A stretch of 64,000 bases of DNA from Escherichia coli (lineage in GTDB: Bacteria > Pseudomonadota > Gammaproteobacteria > Enterobacterales > Enterobacteriaceae): the NCBI RefSeq assembly GCF_030013595.1, contig NZ_CP122768.1. The stretch is one strand, 5' to 3'. A model generated the notes under the pieces. It made no database searches and was not told the DNA's origin. It saw nothing but the letters and a program-made list of their open reading frames with translations. Shown one piece after another: positions 9,541 through 17,241 of this stretch (positions within the stretch are counted from its first letter, which is position 1; each line of letters starts with the position of its first letter). The position numbers were made by a program, and so were the translations under genes.

Positions 9541-10309
<769 letters not shown>

Positions 10310-10413
10310 ATCAGCATACTTGTCCTTAGCCTTCTGCAGTGACAGCTGGTAGTACAGCGTGCTTCTGGCCAGCCCTGCAGCCTTTAACAGGTCAGACTGG
10401 CAGTGTCCGCACC

Positions 10414-10944
10414 TCAGGCTCCGGATGACTTTCGTTTTTTCTCCAGCTCCTGGCGCTTTTTTTCCAGGAGATGCTCCTGCATGGCTTTCAGATATGCATT
10501 TTCTGCGCGAAGATAACGCAGCTCATTCTTCATCTCTTCCGGCGTCATGTTTGCCTCGTTTTCATGGGTATCATCAGAACGGGTCATGCTTTTCTCCTTC
10601 CTGCGCCTGATAAAGGCCTCATTACCAGATTTGCGGTAGCCTTTTATCCAGTTTTTAACCGTGTTGTGGCTGGGAATGTTAAACCGGGCAGCTACCCGGG
10701 GTAGAGACTCAGAATGCCCGAGAGCATAAAGAACCACGCAAAGTTTATCTTCAGGAGAATAGCTACGCTTGTGTCTGCAATCCAGTGCACGAGGACCGTG
10801 AAGAAGAAAAAGATTAATCCAGTGTGAGAGGCTGGTGTGAGAAAGTTGAAAGAGTTTTGCCGTAGAAATGATGCCTGCATGACCAGCCAGGTAATGATTT
10901 ACAGCGGCAAGTTTTACTTCAAATGAATGTTTCATAAACTGCAC
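10414..10944 (-). CDS. IS transposase OrfA (HTH plus leucine zipper)
   Basis: 176 aa; ends just after slippery heptamer A AAA AAG (+ strand T-run 10457-10463). Confidence 0.8.
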   Translation of the reverse strand: MQFMKHSFEVKLAAVNHYLAGHAGIISTAKLFQLSHTSLSHWINLFLLHGPRALDCRHKRSYSPEDKLCVVLYALGHSESLPRVAARFNIPSHNTVKNWIKGYRKSGNEAFIRRRKEKSMTRSDDTHENEANMTPEEMKNELRYLRAENAYLKAMQEHLLEKKRQELEKKRKSSGA

Positions 10945-10986
10945 CTTCAGATGTCAGATTATGTCCAACATTTGGGGTGCAGTTCA

Positions 10987-11098: not shown

Positions 11099-13360
11099 TT
11101 ACATCTGACGGTTTTTATTGAAGTTAATCAAACTACCCGCCTTGATAATCTCGCGCTCTTCGGCCGTCAGGCTTTCCATGTAAAGCGTAATTTCCGTTAC
11201 CGGCGCATCTTCATGGATCACATAACCTTTAAACGTCGTACCCGGATTATCCAGCGCTGCTTTAATGCCAGGGATGTAAATGTAATCCCCCACTTCAAAC
11301 GTTGGTGCTTCCGCCATCTGCAGCGGTAACATCCCCCAGTTGATGACGTTAGAACGGTAGCGTTTAGTCGCGTACTCCTCGGCAATATTCGCCAGACCGC
11401 CAATCACACGCTGGCAGCTCGCCGCCTGCTCACGCGCAGAACCATCGCCTGGTTTCACCGCATAGACCATGCTGCCAATTTCAGTTTGCAGCGGATCAAT
11501 ATGCTCCTGACCAGCAATCTGCTTAATGCGCGCAAACACCTCTGTCAGCTCGCTGACATTCCCCGCCAGACGCTGATTTTCCAGCTCAGCAGTCGCTTTA
11601 CTTCTGCCAACATAACCTGGATCGCGGCGTGACAGGGTAAACTCCGCCAGACCAATCGGATTTGAACGATAAGAAGAGGTTTCACCGGAAGGGATCAGTT
11701 CGTCGGTGGTGGTCACTTCGTCGAGGATCTTCGAGCACACTTTGAGGACGATATTGTCAGTTAGCGCCCCCAATTCTGGCCAGTCTTTTATGTTCGGTCC
11801 GTAAATCAATGGTTGCTGGGTCGCCCCTTTCACAAAGCCCTGATAAACACGGTTTTTATACGGAGTTACATCGAAGGCGTACTCCGGTACGTTGTCCCAG
11901 CAATCAAGTTCGCTGGCAGAGGTTAAATAGCCACCGTTTGCCGCAGTCGCAGCGATAGAACGAGCGTCCATCAACGCCACCGCTGACATCTGCCCATTGG
12001 CTGGCTTAGAGCCTTCGCGGTTCGGGAAGTTACGCGTGGTGTGGCGAATACTCAAACCGTTGTTGATTGGCGTATCGCCCGCGCCAAAGCATGGGCCGCA
12101 GAACGCGGTTCTGATGATTGCGCCTGCGCCAATCAAATCTGCTACCACGCCTTTTTTGGCTAAATCCATAAACACCGGCTGTGATGACGGGTAAACCGCT
12201 AACGAGAAGGTGTCATTGCCACAGGATTGACCGCGCAGCGCATTCGCCGCCGCGATGACGTTTTCATAGTTACCGCCAGAACAGCCCGCGATAATCCCCT
12301 GCTGCACTTTCAGGCGACCATTTTCCACTTTATCCAGCAGCGAGAGTTTGGCTTTACCGTGCGCCACGCGTTCGGACTCAATTTCAATCTCACGCAGAAT
12401 ATCGGTCAGGTTCTGGTTCAGCGTGTCGATTTCATATACGTTGCTCGGGTGGAACGGCAGCGCAATCATTGGTTTGATGGCGCTTAAATCAACGCTGATG
12501 CAGCCATCGTAGTATGCCATCGGTTGAGGGTTAAGCTGGCAGTAATCCTGGCCGCGTCCGTGCAGCGCCAGCCAGTTATGGACTTCTTCATCGGTTTGCC
12601 AGACAGAACTTAAACAGGTCGTTTCAGTGGTCATAACGTCAACGCTGTTACGGAAATCGGTAGAGAGCGCAGCAACACCGGGACCTACGAATTCCATCAC
12701 TTTGTTTTTGACGTAGCCGTTTTTGAACACGGCACCGATGATAGCCAGCGCCACATCCTGTGGCCCCACATACGGCGCAGGCTTTCCGGTCAAATGCACC
12801 GCAACAACTCCCGGATAGTCGATATCCCATGTGTCATTAAGCAGCTGTTTTACCAACTCACCGCCACCCTCACCGACTGCCATTGTCCCTAATGCACCGT
12901 AACGGGTGTGGCTGTCTGACCCGAGGATCATTTTGCCGCCGCCTGCCATCATCTCACGCATATATTGATGGATGACCGCAATATGCGGAGGCACAAAAAT
13001 ACCGCCATAACGCTGAGCCGCCGATAAACCAAAAACATGGTCATCACCGTTAATGGTGCCGCCGACGGCGCAAAGTGAGTTATGGCAGTTGGTCAGCACA
13101 TACGGCAGCGGGAAACGTTCCATACCGGACGCTTTAGCGGTCTGTACAATACCAACAAAGGTAATATCGTGAGAGGCTAATGAATCAAACTTAATTTTAA
13201 GTTTATCCATATTTCCGGACGTATTATGAGAAGAGAGAATAGACCAGGCAATAGTGCCTTTTTTTGCTTCTTCTTTTTTAATTTCGCCGGTGAAATGTTC
13301 TTCGGCAATTATTTCGTTATTACTGGCGAGAAACACGCCTTTTTCAGATAACTTGATCAT
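11099..13360 (-). CDS. ybhJ: YbhJ, aconitase-family hydratase
   Basis: 753 aa from second Met (MIKLSEKG); aconitase family Fe-S hydratase fold. Confidence 0.85.
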
Positions 13361-13413
13361 CAAATGCTCCAGATATCTGCGCACCGTGAAGTGCGCAGAA
13401 AGATAATAAATGG

Positions 13414-13542
13414 ATATACTCTAAATAATTCGAGTTGCAGGAAGGCGACAAGCGAGTGAATCCCCAGGAGCTTACATAAGTAAGTGACTGGGGTGAGCGA
13501 ACGCAGACGCAGCACATGCAACTTGAAGTATGACGAGTATAT
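13414..13542. repeat. ERIC (IRU) element
   Basis: Contains GTGAATCCCCAGGAGCTTACATAAGTAAGTGACTGGGGTGAGCG; terminal ATATACTC / GAGTATAT. Confidence 0.8.
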
Positions 13543-14976
13543 TTACAGCATGTTCCAGCCGATCAGCATATTCCACCACCACACGCCGAGGGTGATATGC
13601 ACCAGGAAGGTTAATATCGTCAGTACCGCACCGACCAACCACCAGGATTTAATATCGTTGTAACCCACGCCAAAGATGACCGGACCTGCCGCGCCGCCAT
13701 AGTGAGTAACCATGCCGCCATAGGAGTTAGAGAACAACAGTGCCAGCGCGGTTAACATTAACGGTGCGCCGGAGACGTTCGCCAGCATGGCAAATACCGG
13801 TAACATAGCAACGATATAGGCACTACCGGAAGCGAAGAAATAACGAACGATGATGCTGAGGAAAATAATAACGAAGAAAGCAACGTTACCGTGACCATCA
13901 AATGCCAGGTTATTTTTAAAGACTTCAGCTAACCATTCGAAAAATTTAACTTTCGATAATAAGGAGCTTAAGCCGATAATACCGCCGTACCAGATTAAGG
14001 TATTCCATCCGCCTTTATTTTTAACCACGTCTTCCCAGGTAACGATACCCAGCAGCAGCATGGTCGCCATAACAACGATTGCCACGGTGGATTCATCAAC
14101 CCCCAGAGACTTACTGAAAATCCAGCCCAGTAGCGCCAGCACAAAGACACCGAGCAGCATTTTTTCGCGGATTTTCATCGGTCCCAGTTCGGCAAGGCCC
14201 GCTTTGGCGATGGTTTTGTTATCCACCTTCTTAATTTCTGGCGGATACATGGTGTAAATCACCAGCGGGGTGACCAGCAGCATAATGATGCCCGGCAATC
14301 CGGCTGCCAGCGCCCATCCACCCCAGCTAATTTGCAGGTGCAGAATGTCGTTGATCATTTTCAGCGCCAGAATGTTCCCCGCCATTGCGGTAAAGAACAT
14401 ATAGCTGGTGGTTTTGGTGACCATGTAAATGGACATCATCAGGTAATGTCCGACACGACGCGGACTTTTTTCCGGTTCGGACCCCAAAGCCACCGCCACG
14501 CTGTTGATGATCGGTAACACAATGCCGCCCGCACGCGCGGTGTTAGACGGTGTTGCCGGAGCCAGTACCAGATCGAGGAATACCGTAACGTAACCCAGAC
14601 CCAGCGTGGTGTTACCGATTTTACCAATCAGCAGATAGGCTATACGTTTACCTAAGCCGGTGGTCACAAATGCGGCGCTTAAGGTAAACGCCGAGAACAC
14701 CAGCCAGGTGGTACCTGAAGAGTAACCGCTTAATACGGCGGTGGTCTTAAACGCACCGTCGGATAAGTTACCGACCACCACCATTGAGGCAGCAACGGCA
14801 ATTAACAGTACGACAGGTTCCGGGAAAGGCTTGATAACCAGCCCCACAATGGCCGCCAGGTAAATACCAAAAAGCACCCACGCCAGTTCGCTTAATCCTG
14901 CCGGAGCTGGCATAAAGCCAATAATACATGGGATCGCTAATATCAGAATTAGCTTCCATAACGATTTTTTATTCAT
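13543..14976 (-). CDS. ybhI: YbhI, DASS-family anion:sodium symporter
   Basis: 477 aa polytopic membrane protein. Confidence 0.85.
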   Translation of the reverse strand: MNKKSLWKLILILAIPCIIGFMPAPAGLSELAWVLFGIYLAAIVGLVIKPFPEPVVLLIAVAASMVVVGNLSDGAFKTTAVLSGYSSGTTWLVFSAFTLSAAFVTTGLGKRIAYLLIGKIGNTTLGLGYVTVFLDLVLAPATPSNTARAGGIVLPIINSVAVALGSEPEKSPRRVGHYLMMSIYMVTKTTSYMFFTAMAGNILALKMINDILHLQISWGGWALAAGLPGIIMLLVTPLVIYTMYPPEIKKVDNKTIAKAGLAELGPMKIREKMLLGVFVLALLGWIFSKSLGVDESTVAIVVMATMLLLGIVTWEDVVKNKGGWNTLIWYGGIIGLSSLLSKVKFFEWLAEVFKNNLAFDGHGNVAFFVIIFLSIIVRYFFASGSAYIVAMLPVFAMLANVSGAPLMLTALALLFSNSYGGMVTHYGGAAGPVIFGVGYNDIKSWWLVGAVLTILTFLVHITLGVWWWNMLIGWNML

Positions 14977-15051
14977 TTAAAATCCTGTTCTTTCTGTATG
15001 ACTCATACAGAAGTCCTTTATTGATTGTCCTTATCCTGACAACGAATTTTT

Positions 15052-16104
15052 TCAGGGAAGAAAAACTTCACCGGAAAATATTTTTCTGGTTGTCCGAATA
15101 ACAGATGCGCGTAACGTCGTGGCATCCTGACCTTCATTACTTAAATGAACGTCGAGCGCACCACTGGGGTGTTCAATATTGATATTGCCGTATCCTACAG
15201 AAGGGACGATTTGTCGGGTGACGGTGCCTTCCAATGCACAACTACTGGAAATGGCAATAGCACCGGTTATCGCCAGCGCGCGATGGCAAGAATGCGGCAT
15301 AAAATAACGCACATTAATTGCTCCGCCTTTCTGCGCTGGAGAAATAAGCACAGGTTTAGGGATAACCATATTACTGACATCGCCTAAGCCCATTGCTTTA
15401 CCCGCTTGTAGACGGATAGATTCAATGCGGGCTAATAATGCTTTGTCGGCATCCAGCTCCGCCGGTAATTCATAGCCTGTTTTTCCCAGATATTCAGCAG
15501 GAATAATGACAACTGGCATCGCCATATCGATACAGGTCACCGGGACATCGTCAAAATAATCAATCTGATTATCCGTCGGGAAGACTTTTCCGGTTTTGGT
15601 TCCGGCGGCATTCAGGAAAGTGAGCGCAACCGGTGCGGCAGTACCCGGTACGCCGTCAATTCTGGCGCAACCCTCGTACTCGACAACACCATTTGGCGTT
15701 TGCACATCAGCTTCGATGAACGTACCCGTATTGACGTTGCGGATACGTACGCGGGTAACTGGCGAAGTCGCTGCAATCAAACCATTTTCAATGGCGAATG
15801 CCCCAACGCCAGACAGCATATTGCCGCAGTTAGGCGTGGTATCGACACGTTGCTCATGGACGATAACTTGAGCAAACAGATAATCGACATCTGCACGCGG
15901 ATCGCTGGAGCGGCTAATAATGGCGACTTTACTGGTCAGCGGATTACCGCCGCCAATACCGTCAATTTCCAGATCGTTACCGGAACCCATAATTGCCATC
16001 AATATTTTATCGCGCTGCGTTTGATCTTCGGGTAGATGTTCCGCTAACAGGAACGCGCCCCTCGAGGTTCCACCTCGCATCATCACGCAGGGTATTTTTT
16101 TCAT
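15052..16104 (-). CDS. ybhH: YbhH, PrpF/AcnD-accessory family isomerase
   Basis: 350 aa. Confidence 0.85.
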   Translation of the reverse strand: MKKIPCVMMRGGTSRGAFLLAEHLPEDQTQRDKILMAIMGSGNDLEIDGIGGGNPLTSKVAIISRSSDPRADVDYLFAQVIVHEQRVDTTPNCGNMLSGVGAFAIENGLIAATSPVTRVRIRNVNTGTFIEADVQTPNGVVEYEGCARIDGVPGTAAPVALTFLNAAGTKTGKVFPTDNQIDYFDDVPVTCIDMAMPVVIIPAEYLGKTGYELPAELDADKALLARIESIRLQAGKAMGLGDVSNMVIPKPVLISPAQKGGAINVRYFMPHSCHRALAITGAIAISSSCALEGTVTRQIVPSVGYGNINIEHPSGALDVHLSNEGQDATTLRASVIRTTRKIFSGEVFLP

Positions 16105-16287
16105 AATAATGCCCTCAATTTAAAAACATAACTTATTGCGATATGGTTACATTAAGGGCAAAGCATCTCTAATGACTTTAGCTCAACGATTAATAACATT
16201 TTTTCATTAATTTAAGTTGGCTAAATGCAGTTAAAATTTTTAACGGCCAGCTACCCAAAATCGACGCTTCCATTTTCCGGAGTAATA

Positions 16288-17241
16288 ATGAAGCATGAAT
16301 TATCAAGTATGAAGGCATTTGTCATACTGGCAGAGTCCAGTTCATTTAACAATGCCGCTAAATTACTCAATATTACGCAACCTGCATTAACGCGAAGAAT
16401 AAAAAAGATGGAGGAAGATTTACATATCCAACTATTTGAGCGTACAACTCGCAAGGTTACGTTAACAAAAGCAGGAAAAAGATTGCTCCCGGAGGCGCGG
16501 GAATTAATAAAGAAACTCGATGAAACGCTTTTTAATATTCGTGATATGAATGCTTATCATCGTGGTATGGTGACGTTAGCGTGTATTCCGACTGCAGTAT
16601 TTTATTTTTTACCGCTGGCAATCGGTAAATTTAATGAGCTGTATCCCAATATTAAAGTGCGAATTCTGGAACAAGGCACGAATAATTGCATGGAATCGGT
16701 GCTGTGTAACGAATCAGACTTTGGCATAAACATGAACAACGTCACAAATTCATCCATTGATTTTACCCCACTGGTCAACGAGCCGTTCGTGCTGGCCTGT
16801 CGGCGTGACCATCCATTGGCCAAAAAGCAGCTTGTTGAATGGCAGGAGTTAGTGGGTTACAAAATGATTGGCGTACGTTCCTCCAGCGGCAACCGATTGT
16901 TGATAGAACAACAGCTAGCCGACAAGCCCTGGAAGCTGGACTGGTTTTACGAAGTGCGTCATCTTTCGACGTCATTAGGACTGGTGGAGGCAGGACTGGG
17001 GATTTCGGCGCTTCCTGGTCTGGCAATGCCCCATGCGCCCTATTCTTCGATTATTGGTATCCCACTGGTGGAACCCGTTATACGTCGGACATTGGGGATT
17101 ATTCGCCGCAAAGATGCCGTGCTTTCTCCGGCAGCTGAACGCTTTTTTGCCTTGCTGATTAATTTGTGGACTGACGATAAAGACAATTTGTGGACCAATA
17201 TCGTCGAACGCCAGAGACATGCGTTACAGGAGATAGGTTAA
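16288..17241 (+). CDS. ybhD: YbhD, LysR-family transcriptional regulator
   Basis: 317 aa from MKHELSS; N-terminal HTH; divergent from ybhH. Confidence 0.8.
   Translation: MKHELSSMKAFVILAESSSFNNAAKLLNITQPALTRRIKKMEEDLHIQLFERTTRKVTLTKAGKRLLPEARELIKKLDETLFNIRDMNAYHRGMVTLACIPTAVFYFLPLAIGKFNELYPNIKVRILEQGTNNCMESVLCNESDFGINMNNVTNSSIDFTPLVNEPFVLACRRDHPLAKKQLVEWQELVGYKMIGVRSSSGNRLLIEQQLADKPWKLDWFYEVRHLSTSLGLVEAGLGISALPGLAMPHAPYSSIIGIPLVEPVIRRTLGIIRRKDAVLSPAAERFFALLINLWTDDKDNLWTNIVERQRHALQEIG

Follow-up and report, generated by a model that had tools for sequence, protein, structure and literature searches.

Isomerases of the PrpF superfamily are encoded beside transporters or enzymes of the aconitase family in several described systems. 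The tarR/tarA-tarB locus of Bacillus velezensis, which serves to assimilate the plant tricarboxylate trans-aconitate into central metabolism, consists of a LysR gene and a divergent operon, in which the isomerase gene tarA comes first and is followed by the transporter gene (PMC11495376). In the 2-methylcitrate cycle of Shewanella and Ralstonia, the gene of the aconitase-family Fe-S enzyme AcnD adjoins that of PrpF, a Lys/Cys isomerase which corrects double-bond geometry. LigU and GalD, known from the protocatechuate 4,5-cleavage and gallate pathways, belong to a short subgroup of the family with catalytic Lys and Cys residues. Another short PrpF-fold protein, the aconitate isomerase TbrA of Bacillus thuringiensis, is encoded next to the transporter TbrB. 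The gut inhabitant Acidaminococcus fermentans ferments trans-aconitate via citrate, then oxaloacetate and pyruvate, and in its genome paper, MatC-domain carriers, each paired with a protein that has an aconitate hydratase domain, are listed for this pathway (PMC3035267).

Organization of the ybh locus

In the analyzed window, a 64-kb stretch of Escherichia coli DNA, the genes ybhJ (11099..13360), ybhI (13543..14976) and ybhH (15052..16104) lie on the minus strand, and ybhD (16288..17241) is oriented divergently on the plus strand (gene names as given in the RefSeq annotation). Neighbors of the locus are bioA, ybhB, ybhC, pgl, ybhA and modABC. The encoded proteins are an aconitase-family Fe-S hydro-lyase (YbhJ, 753 amino acids), an anion transporter of the DASS family (YbhI, 477 amino acids), a PrpF-fold allylic isomerase (YbhH, 350 amino acids) and a LysR-type regulator (YbhD, 317 amino acids). 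A preliminary description of this DNA had already named these families, the co-orientation and the divergent LysR gene, all of which agree with the open reading frames, the RefSeq names and the profile matches. Two gene starts, which had been taken from the longest open reading frames, have to be corrected. The annotated start of ybhJ is the ATG at 13360, preceded by a GGAG Shine-Dalgarno sequence, and not the GTG at 13384; that of ybhD is 16288 instead of 16225.

The divergent control region between ybhH and ybhD (16105..16287, assigned to neither strand) was recognized by its sequence and its conservation across genera. It contains the dyad TTAAT-N11-ATTAA at 16190-16210, the left half of which is invariant in five genera, and a second conserved block, CTAATGACTTT, at 16169-16179; both are kept across Escherichia, Citrobacter and Edwardsiella. 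YbhD carries an N-terminal HTH_1 domain and a LysR_substrate domain, and a T-N11-A dyad lies between the divergent genes, as is characteristic of LysR-type regulators. It represses ybhH, which was found derepressed by RNA-seq in a ybhD deletion mutant; this mutant also showed a growth phenotype with L-malate, although the link is vague (PMC9068703).

In order and orientation, the ybh genes show the tarRAB-type layout of a divergent LysR gene, a gene for a PrpF-superfamily isomerase and a co-transcribed importer gene, and a corresponding role in feeding a plant tricarboxylate into central metabolism is proposed for them. The transporter, however, belongs to the DASS family in ybh and to the MFS in tar, and ybhJ is added as a dedicated aconitase-family gene. 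Furthermore, TarR is an activator, whereas YbhD is a repressor of ybhH, and YbhH is short in comparison to the reported length of TarA (376 amino acids). E. coli is also without a known trans-aconitate phenotype.

At least 80% of the module was found in 5315 of 5426 complete E. coli genomes, and dN/dS values of 0.02-0.04 for each of the four genes in comparison to E. albertii indicate strong purifying selection. Among enterobacteria, the LysR/PrpF/DASS/aconitase set occupies three distinct chromosomal sites: the E. coli position, which is common to E. albertii and Citrobacter, a site in Klebsiella aerogenes about 2 kb from the citrate-fermentation genes citAB-oadGAB-citS, and a third site in Edwardsiella. 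The occurrence of the same four genes at three sites implies that they travel as a unit.

YbhJ and its orthologues in anaerobic bacteria

YbhJ comprises the Pfam domains Aconitase and Aconitase_C (E 5e-88) and belongs to the aconitase superfamily (PF00330, 296.5 bits, residues 41-470; PF00694, 28.4 bits, cutoff 22.8). On the NCBIfam YbhJ equivalog NF008503 (PRK11413, 'hydratase') it reached 1541 bits (cutoff 641). In an alignment with pig mitochondrial aconitase, the cluster-binding cysteines C360, C421 and C424 and the triad D149-S150-H151 are matched, as are S641, R443, R448 and R643, the equivalents of Ser642 and Arg447/452/644; the cluster-binding cysteines and the catalytic residues are invariant across 27 orthologues. 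An assignment as canonical aconitase was nevertheless rejected. The scores on the respective models were far under the cutoffs (mitochondrial 120 bits; AcnA 97; AcnB 51), and YbhJ is unlike the canonical enzymes at a set of six mapped positions (Q72H, D100C, N170Y, N258V, N446T, S643A).

Full-length orthologues with 61-72% identity occur in gut Firmicutes, Collinsella and Synergistales. Those of A. fermentans and Clostridiales reached 1343-1360 bits on NF008503, and at each of the 22 active-site positions that were mapped, YbhJ of E. coli has the same residue as the gut-anaerobe orthologues. Citrate genes were located at most 5 kb from the YbhJ orthologue in 21 of 48 non-Collinsella loci. Seventeen of these 21 loci possess a citrate synthase and/or isocitrate dehydrogenase-family gene, often directly downstream, and six possess citDEF with citC/X/G; the citrate synthase was identified with NF010635 (572 bits, cutoff 426). 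Operons of the order PrpF-transporter-YbhJ were found in Oribacterium, where citE, citF, citX and citG follow, in A. fermentans and in two other Firmicutes. In the operon of A. fermentans, the documented aconitate fermenter, the PrpF protein is of the long subgroup and the carrier of the CitMHS/MatC type. The PrpF proteins linked to YbhJ in the Firmicutes form a separate, longer subgroup with 37-40% identity to YbhH, and because of this the PrpF part of the Firmicutes context does not carry over to YbhH by orthology.

Judged from these sequence comparisons, YbhJ is probably a third, anaerobe-type aconitase of E. coli. The preliminary description had likened the unit to one for the isomerization, hydration and catabolism of a tricarboxylate. 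The genes around the YbhJ orthologues support this idea and restrict the candidate substrates to aconitate, citrate and isocitrate. In the study by Blank et al. from 2002, an acnAB mutant reportedly showed no aconitase activity attributable to ybhJ, which is said to have been under native, probably repressed, expression. Elsewhere, ybhJ was described as a catalytically inactive paralogue, the deletion of which causes sensitivity to H2O2 (PMC4054840), and its mRNA was increased 18-fold in E. coli fed with algal biomass (PMC10972114).

The isomerase YbhH and the transporter YbhI

YbhH matches the PrpF family over its full length (PF04303, 555 bits, residues 1-350, E 8e-167), and a crystal structure exists (6OTV). 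Its catalytic residues Lys59 and Cys93 align with K66 and C100 of LigU. Identification as the 2-methylaconitate isomerase PrpF was rejected (TIGR02334, 185 bits, cutoff 440.55; prpBC/acnD context absent); for comparison, a genuine PrpF encoded in prpB-prpC-acnD-prpF reached 769.8 bits. Among the characterized proteins compared, YbhH shares the highest identity with LigU/GalD (45-47% to LigU versus 41-44% to a TbrA orthologue), together with the short length, the catalytic Lys/Cys pair and the NCBIfam model for 4-oxalomesaconate tautomerase (NF033377, 513.8 bits, cutoff 440). Since the TbrA orthologue attains 413.6 bits on NF033377, this model separates oxalomesaconate and aconitate isomerases poorly. 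In the tree, the TbrA orthologue is the branch nearest YbhH and groups with it in 158 of 200 bootstraps (79%), versus just 28 of 200 for LigU. The TbrA-TbrB system itself differs from the ybh module, as it is plasmid-borne, operates in the biosynthetic direction with a DMT exporter and contains neither a regulator nor an aconitase.

TarA has documented aconitate isomerase activity (PMC11495376), and so does PrpF, which is more distant within the family (PMC5690661). The Providencia protein AI-79, which looks YbhH-like by its primer-encoded ends, showed less than 1% of the TarA isomerase activity in vitro; about 7 residues seem to be missing from the start of the construct. We propose that YbhH is an aconitate cis/trans isomerase.

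YbhI (Na_sulph_symp, PF00939, 649 bits) matches the DASS model TIGR00785 over its full length (553.9 bits, cutoff 198.6) and is thus a member of this family. Among its closest characterized relatives are the uptake exchangers CitT and TtdT. YbhI is proposed to be an aconitate carrier and possibly also an exchanger.

Proposed pathway and alternative explanations

A published substrate for ybhD/ybhH-ybhI-ybhJ was not found in the searchable full-text literature to August 2026, in line with the preliminary description, which had called the substrate undefined and the module uncharacterized. The latter term is slightly too strong, as the regulatory link between YbhD and ybhH and the YbhH structure were already available. 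The only functional papers found were those on ybhH derepression and L-malate (PMC9068703) and on H2O2 sensitivity (PMC4054840); no paper describing growth of E. coli on trans-aconitate was found. New here are the YbhJ orthologues with their citrate and PrpF operons in anaerobes, as well as the position of YbhH between TbrA and LigU.

The explanation we prefer, to which we assign an even chance, is a YbhD-controlled uptake of aconitate, probably of the trans isomer, followed by isomerization and hydration; the module would then be a tarRAB variant with its own anaerobe-type aconitase. YbhD, a repressor according to the published data, would keep the operon silent in the absence of an effector, which is presumably the substrate itself. 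YbhI would import the acid, possibly by antiport with a C4-dicarboxylate, for example succinate or malate, and YbhH, by homology a Lys/Cys allylic isomerase, would turn trans-aconitate into cis-aconitate. Hydration of the latter to citrate or isocitrate by YbhJ is suggested by orthology and context, and the product could enter the TCA cycle or, anaerobically, be a substrate of citrate lyase. trans-Aconitate is among the main acids in grasses and cereals and abundant in forage, and the substrate would most probably be plant-derived. trans-Aconitate is also an aconitase inhibitor, and if it acts on the housekeeping aconitases, a dedicated aconitase would make sense; this point is speculation.

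Of the neighboring explanations, the use of oxalomesaconate is rather unlikely. YbhH would then be a (4E)-oxalomesaconate isomerase like LigU/GalD, YbhI would import oxalomesaconate or a related ring-cleavage tricarboxylate, and YbhJ would replace LigJ/GalB in the hydration of 2-keto-4-carboxy-3-hexenedioate. Besides the NF033377 score, the identity to LigU and the aligned Lys and Cys residues, this explanation gains from the reading of oxalomesaconate as an oxalyl analogue of aconitate, which makes an aconitase-type hydratase chemically conceivable. However, a genuine ligU is clustered with ligK, amidohydrolase-family genes (presumably those of LigJ/LigI) and ligAB, whereas the neighborhood of ybhH contains an aconitase gene instead and lacks a ring-cleavage dioxygenase, LigJ/GalB and LigK/GalC. 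In addition, the mapped active site of YbhJ is that of orthologues in citrate synthase/isocitrate dehydrogenase operons, and neither the poorly separating model nor the bootstraps place YbhH firmly with LigU. It is likewise unlikely that the two enzymes act in the order of AcnD and PrpF, the reverse of that proposed above, even if the sole well-studied pairing of the two families works in this way (PMC5690661) and one metagenomic locus joins a LysR gene, an Iso_dh-family gene, PrpF and a YbhJ-like gene. YbhJ would dehydrate an unusual hydroxy-tricarboxylate (a citrate analogue or stereoisomer), and YbhH would make the resulting aconitate isomer usable by AcnB. Against this stand the score of YbhJ on the AcnD model, which with just 63.5 bits is, like that of YbhH on TIGR02334, far under the equivalog cutoff, and a locus without prpB/prpC neighbors. 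Moreover, close YbhJ orthologues adjoin citrate synthase and isocitrate dehydrogenase genes, which points to ordinary citrate/isocitrate chemistry, and no context yields a candidate substrate.

Production and export of trans-aconitate as by tbrA-tbrB, with YbhJ forming cis-aconitate from citrate, YbhH converting it to the trans isomer and YbhI exporting the product, would suit the grouping of YbhH with the orthologue of a biosynthetic isomerase, and according to the tar paper the transporter sets the direction and aconitate isomerases favor trans-aconitate formation (PMC11495376). This is quite improbable, as the aconitase-isomerase-transporter sets of anaerobes are joined to citrate lyase genes, a catabolic arrangement. 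The uptake function of the YbhI relatives CitT and TtdT also argues for import, and E. coli is not known to secrete trans-aconitate. A module for the use of C4-dicarboxylates (L-malate), tentatively proposed in 2022, would explain the growth phenotype of the ybhD deletion and the 35.7% identity of YbhI to the spinach 2-oxoglutarate/malate translocator (PMC9068703 supplement). It is very improbable, since it leaves the PrpF isomerase and the aconitase without a role, and the phenotype would likewise be expected if derepressed YbhI swaps a tricarboxylate for malate. Finally, a silent remnant with a catalytically dead YbhJ and without a current metabolic role would be consistent with the label given to ybhJ (PMC4054840) and the poor expression of the ybh genes in laboratory media. 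Purifying selection on all four genes, the retention of the module in nearly all E. coli genomes, and Fe-S ligands and catalytic residues that are intact and identical to those of orthologues across phyla make this extremely improbable.

Returning to aconitate uptake, a more far-reaching version is held tentatively, its chances being somewhat below even. In this version, enterobacterial YbhJ would be a third, anaerobe-derived aconitase, dismissed as inactive although it would be the type at work in many Firmicutes and Actinobacteria of the gut. With YbhH and YbhI as partners, it would open dietary trans-aconitate to E. coli as a nutrient in the gut, probably feeding citrate lyase anaerobically. 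If this is true, a function would be assigned to four conserved genes in the best-studied bacterium, the aconitases of E. coli would number three and not two, and the large YbhJ family, now named just "hydratase", would turn out to supply many gut anaerobes with their aconitase. Thousands of enterobacterial genomes bear the RefSeq name "4-oxalomesaconate tautomerase", which would then probably have to be revised, and the dedicated uptake of trans-aconitate would be a diet-linked niche factor for commensal and pathogenic Enterobacteriaceae.

The ERIC element between ybhJ and ybhI

An ERIC element, noticed already in the preliminary description, starts directly after the ybhI stop codon (13414..13542, assigned to neither strand) and was verified by its core, its fold and its copy number. 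The conserved core matched exactly at 13456-13499 (0 matches expected by chance) and contains both standard ERIC primer sites. When folded, the element (~13414-13542) gives the long, imperfect palindrome that is typical of ERIC sequences of ~127 bp (z = -5.6 to -5.9). E. coli genomes carry copies at several places (median 6), and a place matching at least 80% of the intergenic query exists in 5421 of 5426 genomes. The ERIC element is separated from the ribosome-binding site of ybhJ by a stretch with a perfect 24-nt hairpin on the minus strand (13376..13399), the 10-bp stem of which was seen in the minimum-energy fold.

Organization and conservation of the ybh module

The genes ybhJ (11099-13360, minus strand), ybhI (13543-14976, minus strand) and ybhH (15052-16104, minus strand) are co-oriented, and ybhD (16288-17241, plus strand) is transcribed divergently. 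The layout given in the preliminary description agreed with the ORF table and the RefSeq annotation, but the gene starts had to be corrected to the ATG at 13360, preceded by GGAG, for ybhJ and to 16288 for ybhD. RefSeq designates the products as hydratase (ybhJ), anion permease (ybhI), 4-oxalomesaconate tautomerase (ybhH) and LysR regulator (ybhD), and domain scans confirmed the families proposed earlier (Aconitase and Aconitase_C; DASS transporter; PrpF; HTH_1 and LysR_substrate). According to the RefSeq annotation, the module is flanked by bioA-ybhB-ybhC on one side and by pgl-ybhA-modCBA on the other.

At least 80% of the 6.1-kb module is kept in 5315 of 5426 complete E. coli genomes, and the dN/dS ratio in comparison to E. 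albertii is 0.02-0.04 for each of the four genes. All four genes are functional and travel together. Only 210 records are at least 99% identical to the region 11099-17241, versus 5232 records with 95-99%; the window thus belongs to an E. coli lineage that is less common. Two isolates from pig faeces (UK) are 100% identical over the 6.1 kb.

In Klebsiella aerogenes, the LysR/PrpF/DASS/aconitase set is located at a different site, between rihC and the citrate-fermentation genes citAB-oadGAB-citS, which are about 2 kb away. Edwardsiella tarda carries the set at a third chromosomal site. In two genomes of this species ybhI is frameshifted into two reading frames without a gene call (locus L004, 6483-7912), and ybhD, ybhH and ybhJ are intact despite the split.

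YbhJ and its orthologues in gut anaerobes

Among solved structures, mitochondrial aconitase was the best match of YbhJ. In this alignment YbhJ retains the three cysteines of the cluster, the Asp-Ser-His triad, the catalytic serine and three arginines, and six other canonical aconitase positions are substituted. YbhJ failed the curated models for AcnA, AcnB and mitochondrial aconitase and is covered by an NCBIfam equivalog of its own.

Scanning a single genome for each species yielded at least 597 related loci, of which the best 80 were examined. Among these 80, full-length YbhJ orthologues (61-72% identity) occurred in Enterocloster, Blautia, Butyrivibrio and other Lachnospiraceae, in Megasphaera and Acidaminococcus, and in Erysipelotrichaceae, Synergistales, Collinsella and Ellagibacter. 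No substitution occurs at any of the 22 mapped active-site positions throughout the YbhJ tree. In this neighbour-joining tree the enterobacterial proteins form one clade nested inside the radiation of the gut anaerobes, and E. coli YbhJ resembles the Enterocloster protein (72%) about as closely as it does that of Klebsiella (76%), which suggests that this aconitase moved from gut anaerobes into the Enterobacterales at some point.

The neighbours of the orthologues were clustered, and the recurrent ones were identified by Pfam and NCBIfam. They comprised citrate synthase (572 bits, cutoff 426), an isocitrate dehydrogenase of the NADP-IDH equivalog (645 bits, cutoff 335), a small IDH-like family, the citrate lyase genes citD, citE and citF with citC, citX and citG, as well as LysR regulators and CitMHS/MatC carriers. 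Citrate genes lie within 5 kb in 21 of the 48 non-Collinsella loci, 17 of them with citrate synthase and/or IDH. YbhJ is typically followed by citrate synthase and then IDH, or immediately by IDH; this represents the oxidative TCA branch, and the enzyme missing from it is aconitase. The context was uninformative in about 32 Collinsella loci (dnaK, dnaJ, MerR) and for the most distant relatives (P0148 and P0154).

In several Firmicutes the YbhJ orthologue is accompanied by a PrpF gene and a carrier gene. The order is LysR (divergent), PrpF, CitMHS, YbhJ, citE, citF, citX, citG in Oribacterium, LysR (divergent), YbhJ, PrpF, CitMHS, citD, citE in a Ruminococcus MAG, and PrpF, MatC/CitMHS carrier, YbhJ in Acidaminococcus fermentans. 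The latter, the classical fermenter of trans-aconitate, degrades it through citrate, oxaloacetate and pyruvate, and its genome publication places MatC-domain carriers paired with aconitate hydratase domain proteins under this pathway (PMC3035267). The sequence of steps suggested by these operons is uptake, isomerisation from trans to cis, hydration yielding citrate, and cleavage by citrate lyase. From orthology and context, YbhJ is likely to be a genuine aconitase of the anaerobe type. One metagenome contig (L009, 199-10202) combines three aconitase-family genes with LysR, Iso_dh-family and PrpF genes and may encode a more elaborate tricarboxylate pathway.

Residual aconitase activity was reportedly unchanged after inactivation of ybhJ at native expression (Blank et al., in 2002), a result that does not bear on the YbhJ protein itself and on which the label 'catalytically inactive' presumably rests. 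This label appears in a 2014 study, in which a ybhJ deletion was sensitive to H2O2 and YbhJ was termed a catalytically inactive aconitase paralogue (PMC4054840).

Isomerase subgroup of YbhH

The PrpF proteins beside YbhJ in Firmicutes are only 37-40% identical to YbhH and are not its orthologues. They represent a subgroup of longer proteins, with scores of about 350 bits for the oxalomesaconate and about 335 bits for the PrpF model, under both cutoffs. YbhH, the crystal structure of which has been deposited (6OTV), belongs to a short subgroup of 350 amino acids together with LigU (45-47% identity; copy from a context of ligK, amidohydrolase and ligAB) and an orthologue of TbrA (41-44% identity; adjoining a DMT transporter gene). 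TbrA itself, from B. thuringiensis, has been published as an aconitate isomerase. On NF033377, the NCBIfam model for 4-oxalomesaconate tautomerase, YbhH reached 513.8 (cutoff 440, passed) and the TbrA orthologue 413.6 (L092, 2998-4071), so that the model separates the two functions poorly and enterobacterial YbhH is probably over-annotated under its RefSeq name. Of 200 bootstrap replicates of the neighbour-joining tree, 158 joined YbhH to the TbrA orthologue and 28 joined it to LigU; Y267, C273 and T280 (segment RYFMPHSCH..ITGA) are common to YbhH and the TbrA orthologue and absent in LigU.

Aconitate isomerase activity is documented for the more distant family member PrpF (PMC5690661) and for TarA (PMC11495376). 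As a caveat for such a function of YbhH, a Providencia protein, apparently YbhH-like by its primer-encoded ends, showed less than 1% of the TarA activity, and the primers suggest that the construct lacked the first approximately 7 residues.

Regulation, proposed function and alternatives

The divergent ybhH/ybhD promoter region contains the dyad TTAAT-N11-ATTAA at 16190-16210 and a further block at 16169-16179. Escherichia, Citrobacter and Edwardsiella have both of them conserved, which would be expected of a LysR operator. Consensus scans of the module for sigma-70 promoters (7 sites, 9.3 expected) and terminators (9 sites, 7.1 expected) gave nothing above chance. Deletion of ybhD strongly up-regulated ybhH in a 2022 study, which also cited control by Nac and described a growth phenotype of the deletion strain with L-malate (PMC9068703).

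The operon is repressed by YbhD according to published data. YbhI would import an aconitate-type acid, maybe as an exchanger, which would also account for the phenotype that the derepressed strain shows with malate; YbhH would convert trans-aconitate to cis-aconitate, and YbhJ would hydrate the latter to citrate or isocitrate. We give this complete sequence of uptake, isomerisation and hydration about even chances, and trans-aconitate as the physiological substrate somewhat less than that. By analogy, we propose that the module works like tarR/tarA-tarB, the trans-aconitate assimilation system of Bacillus velezensis described in 2024 (PMC11495376). The carrier is of the DASS rather than the MFS type, a repressor takes the place of the activator, and the dedicated aconitase is an addition.

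Several other explanations were considered. An oxalomesaconate-type pathway would agree with the NF033377 score and the identity to LigU; its defining gene context is absent, and the module was therefore not filed under the LigU/GalD pathways. The module is also reminiscent of the AcnD-PrpF pairing, and a similar pair could act on another hydroxy-tricarboxylate; YbhH itself is not PrpF proper, because score and context both fail. A tbrAB-like module for production and export would fit the grouping of YbhH with the TbrA orthologue, and the PrpF-carrier-YbhJ operons of the anaerobes point to import. Use of dicarboxylates would suit the malate phenotype, for which exchange by YbhI is the other explanation. 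A silent remnant would be compatible with the label of inactivity, and the low dN/dS ratios of all four genes argue against it.

The ybh genes are well-known orphans, and YbhJ is already drawn as an aconitase on KEGG-style maps. In full-text literature searches on ybhH, ybhI and ybhJ (also ybhJ with aconitase) no published substrate assignment was found, as previously assumed, and nothing usable on growth of E. coli on cis- or trans-aconitate was retrieved. New with respect to the searchable papers are the orthology of YbhJ to the aconitase of the anaerobes and the specific aconitate prediction, both of which are directly testable. Hall's gal-linked Cit+ mutations of 1982 were considered for ybhI and dropped; later commentary maps the mutation to the anaerobic citrate region, and direct-selection repeats by the authors of that commentary gave Cit+ mutants.

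Repetitive elements

The ERIC element reported between ybhJ and ybhI was verified by an exact match of the conserved core at 13456-13499. A stretch of about 129 nt directly after the ybhI stop codon folds as one long, imperfectly paired hairpin (z = -5.6). Copies of the sequence occupy a median of 6 places per genome, with a near-full-length match in 5421 of 5426 genomes. Outside Escherichia, no ERIC was found at this position in the genera checked (Citrobacter, Klebsiella), since the Citrobacter spacer comprises 68 bp only and a second DASS-family gene occupies the position in K. aerogenes (L002, 6683-7945). Between ERIC and the Shine-Dalgarno sequence of ybhJ lies a perfect hairpin of 24 nt (13376-13399; TCTGCGCAC CGTGAA GTGCGCAGA), which is not followed by a T-run.

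Between ybhC and ybhJ, a copy of the IS3-family element IS1397 (9555-10986) is inserted within the loop of a REP palindrome, with the flanks GCCGGATGCGGCGTAA (left) and GTAAACGCCTTATCCGGCCTAC (right) and a duplication of GTAA. This agrees with the known preference of IS1397 for palindromic units.
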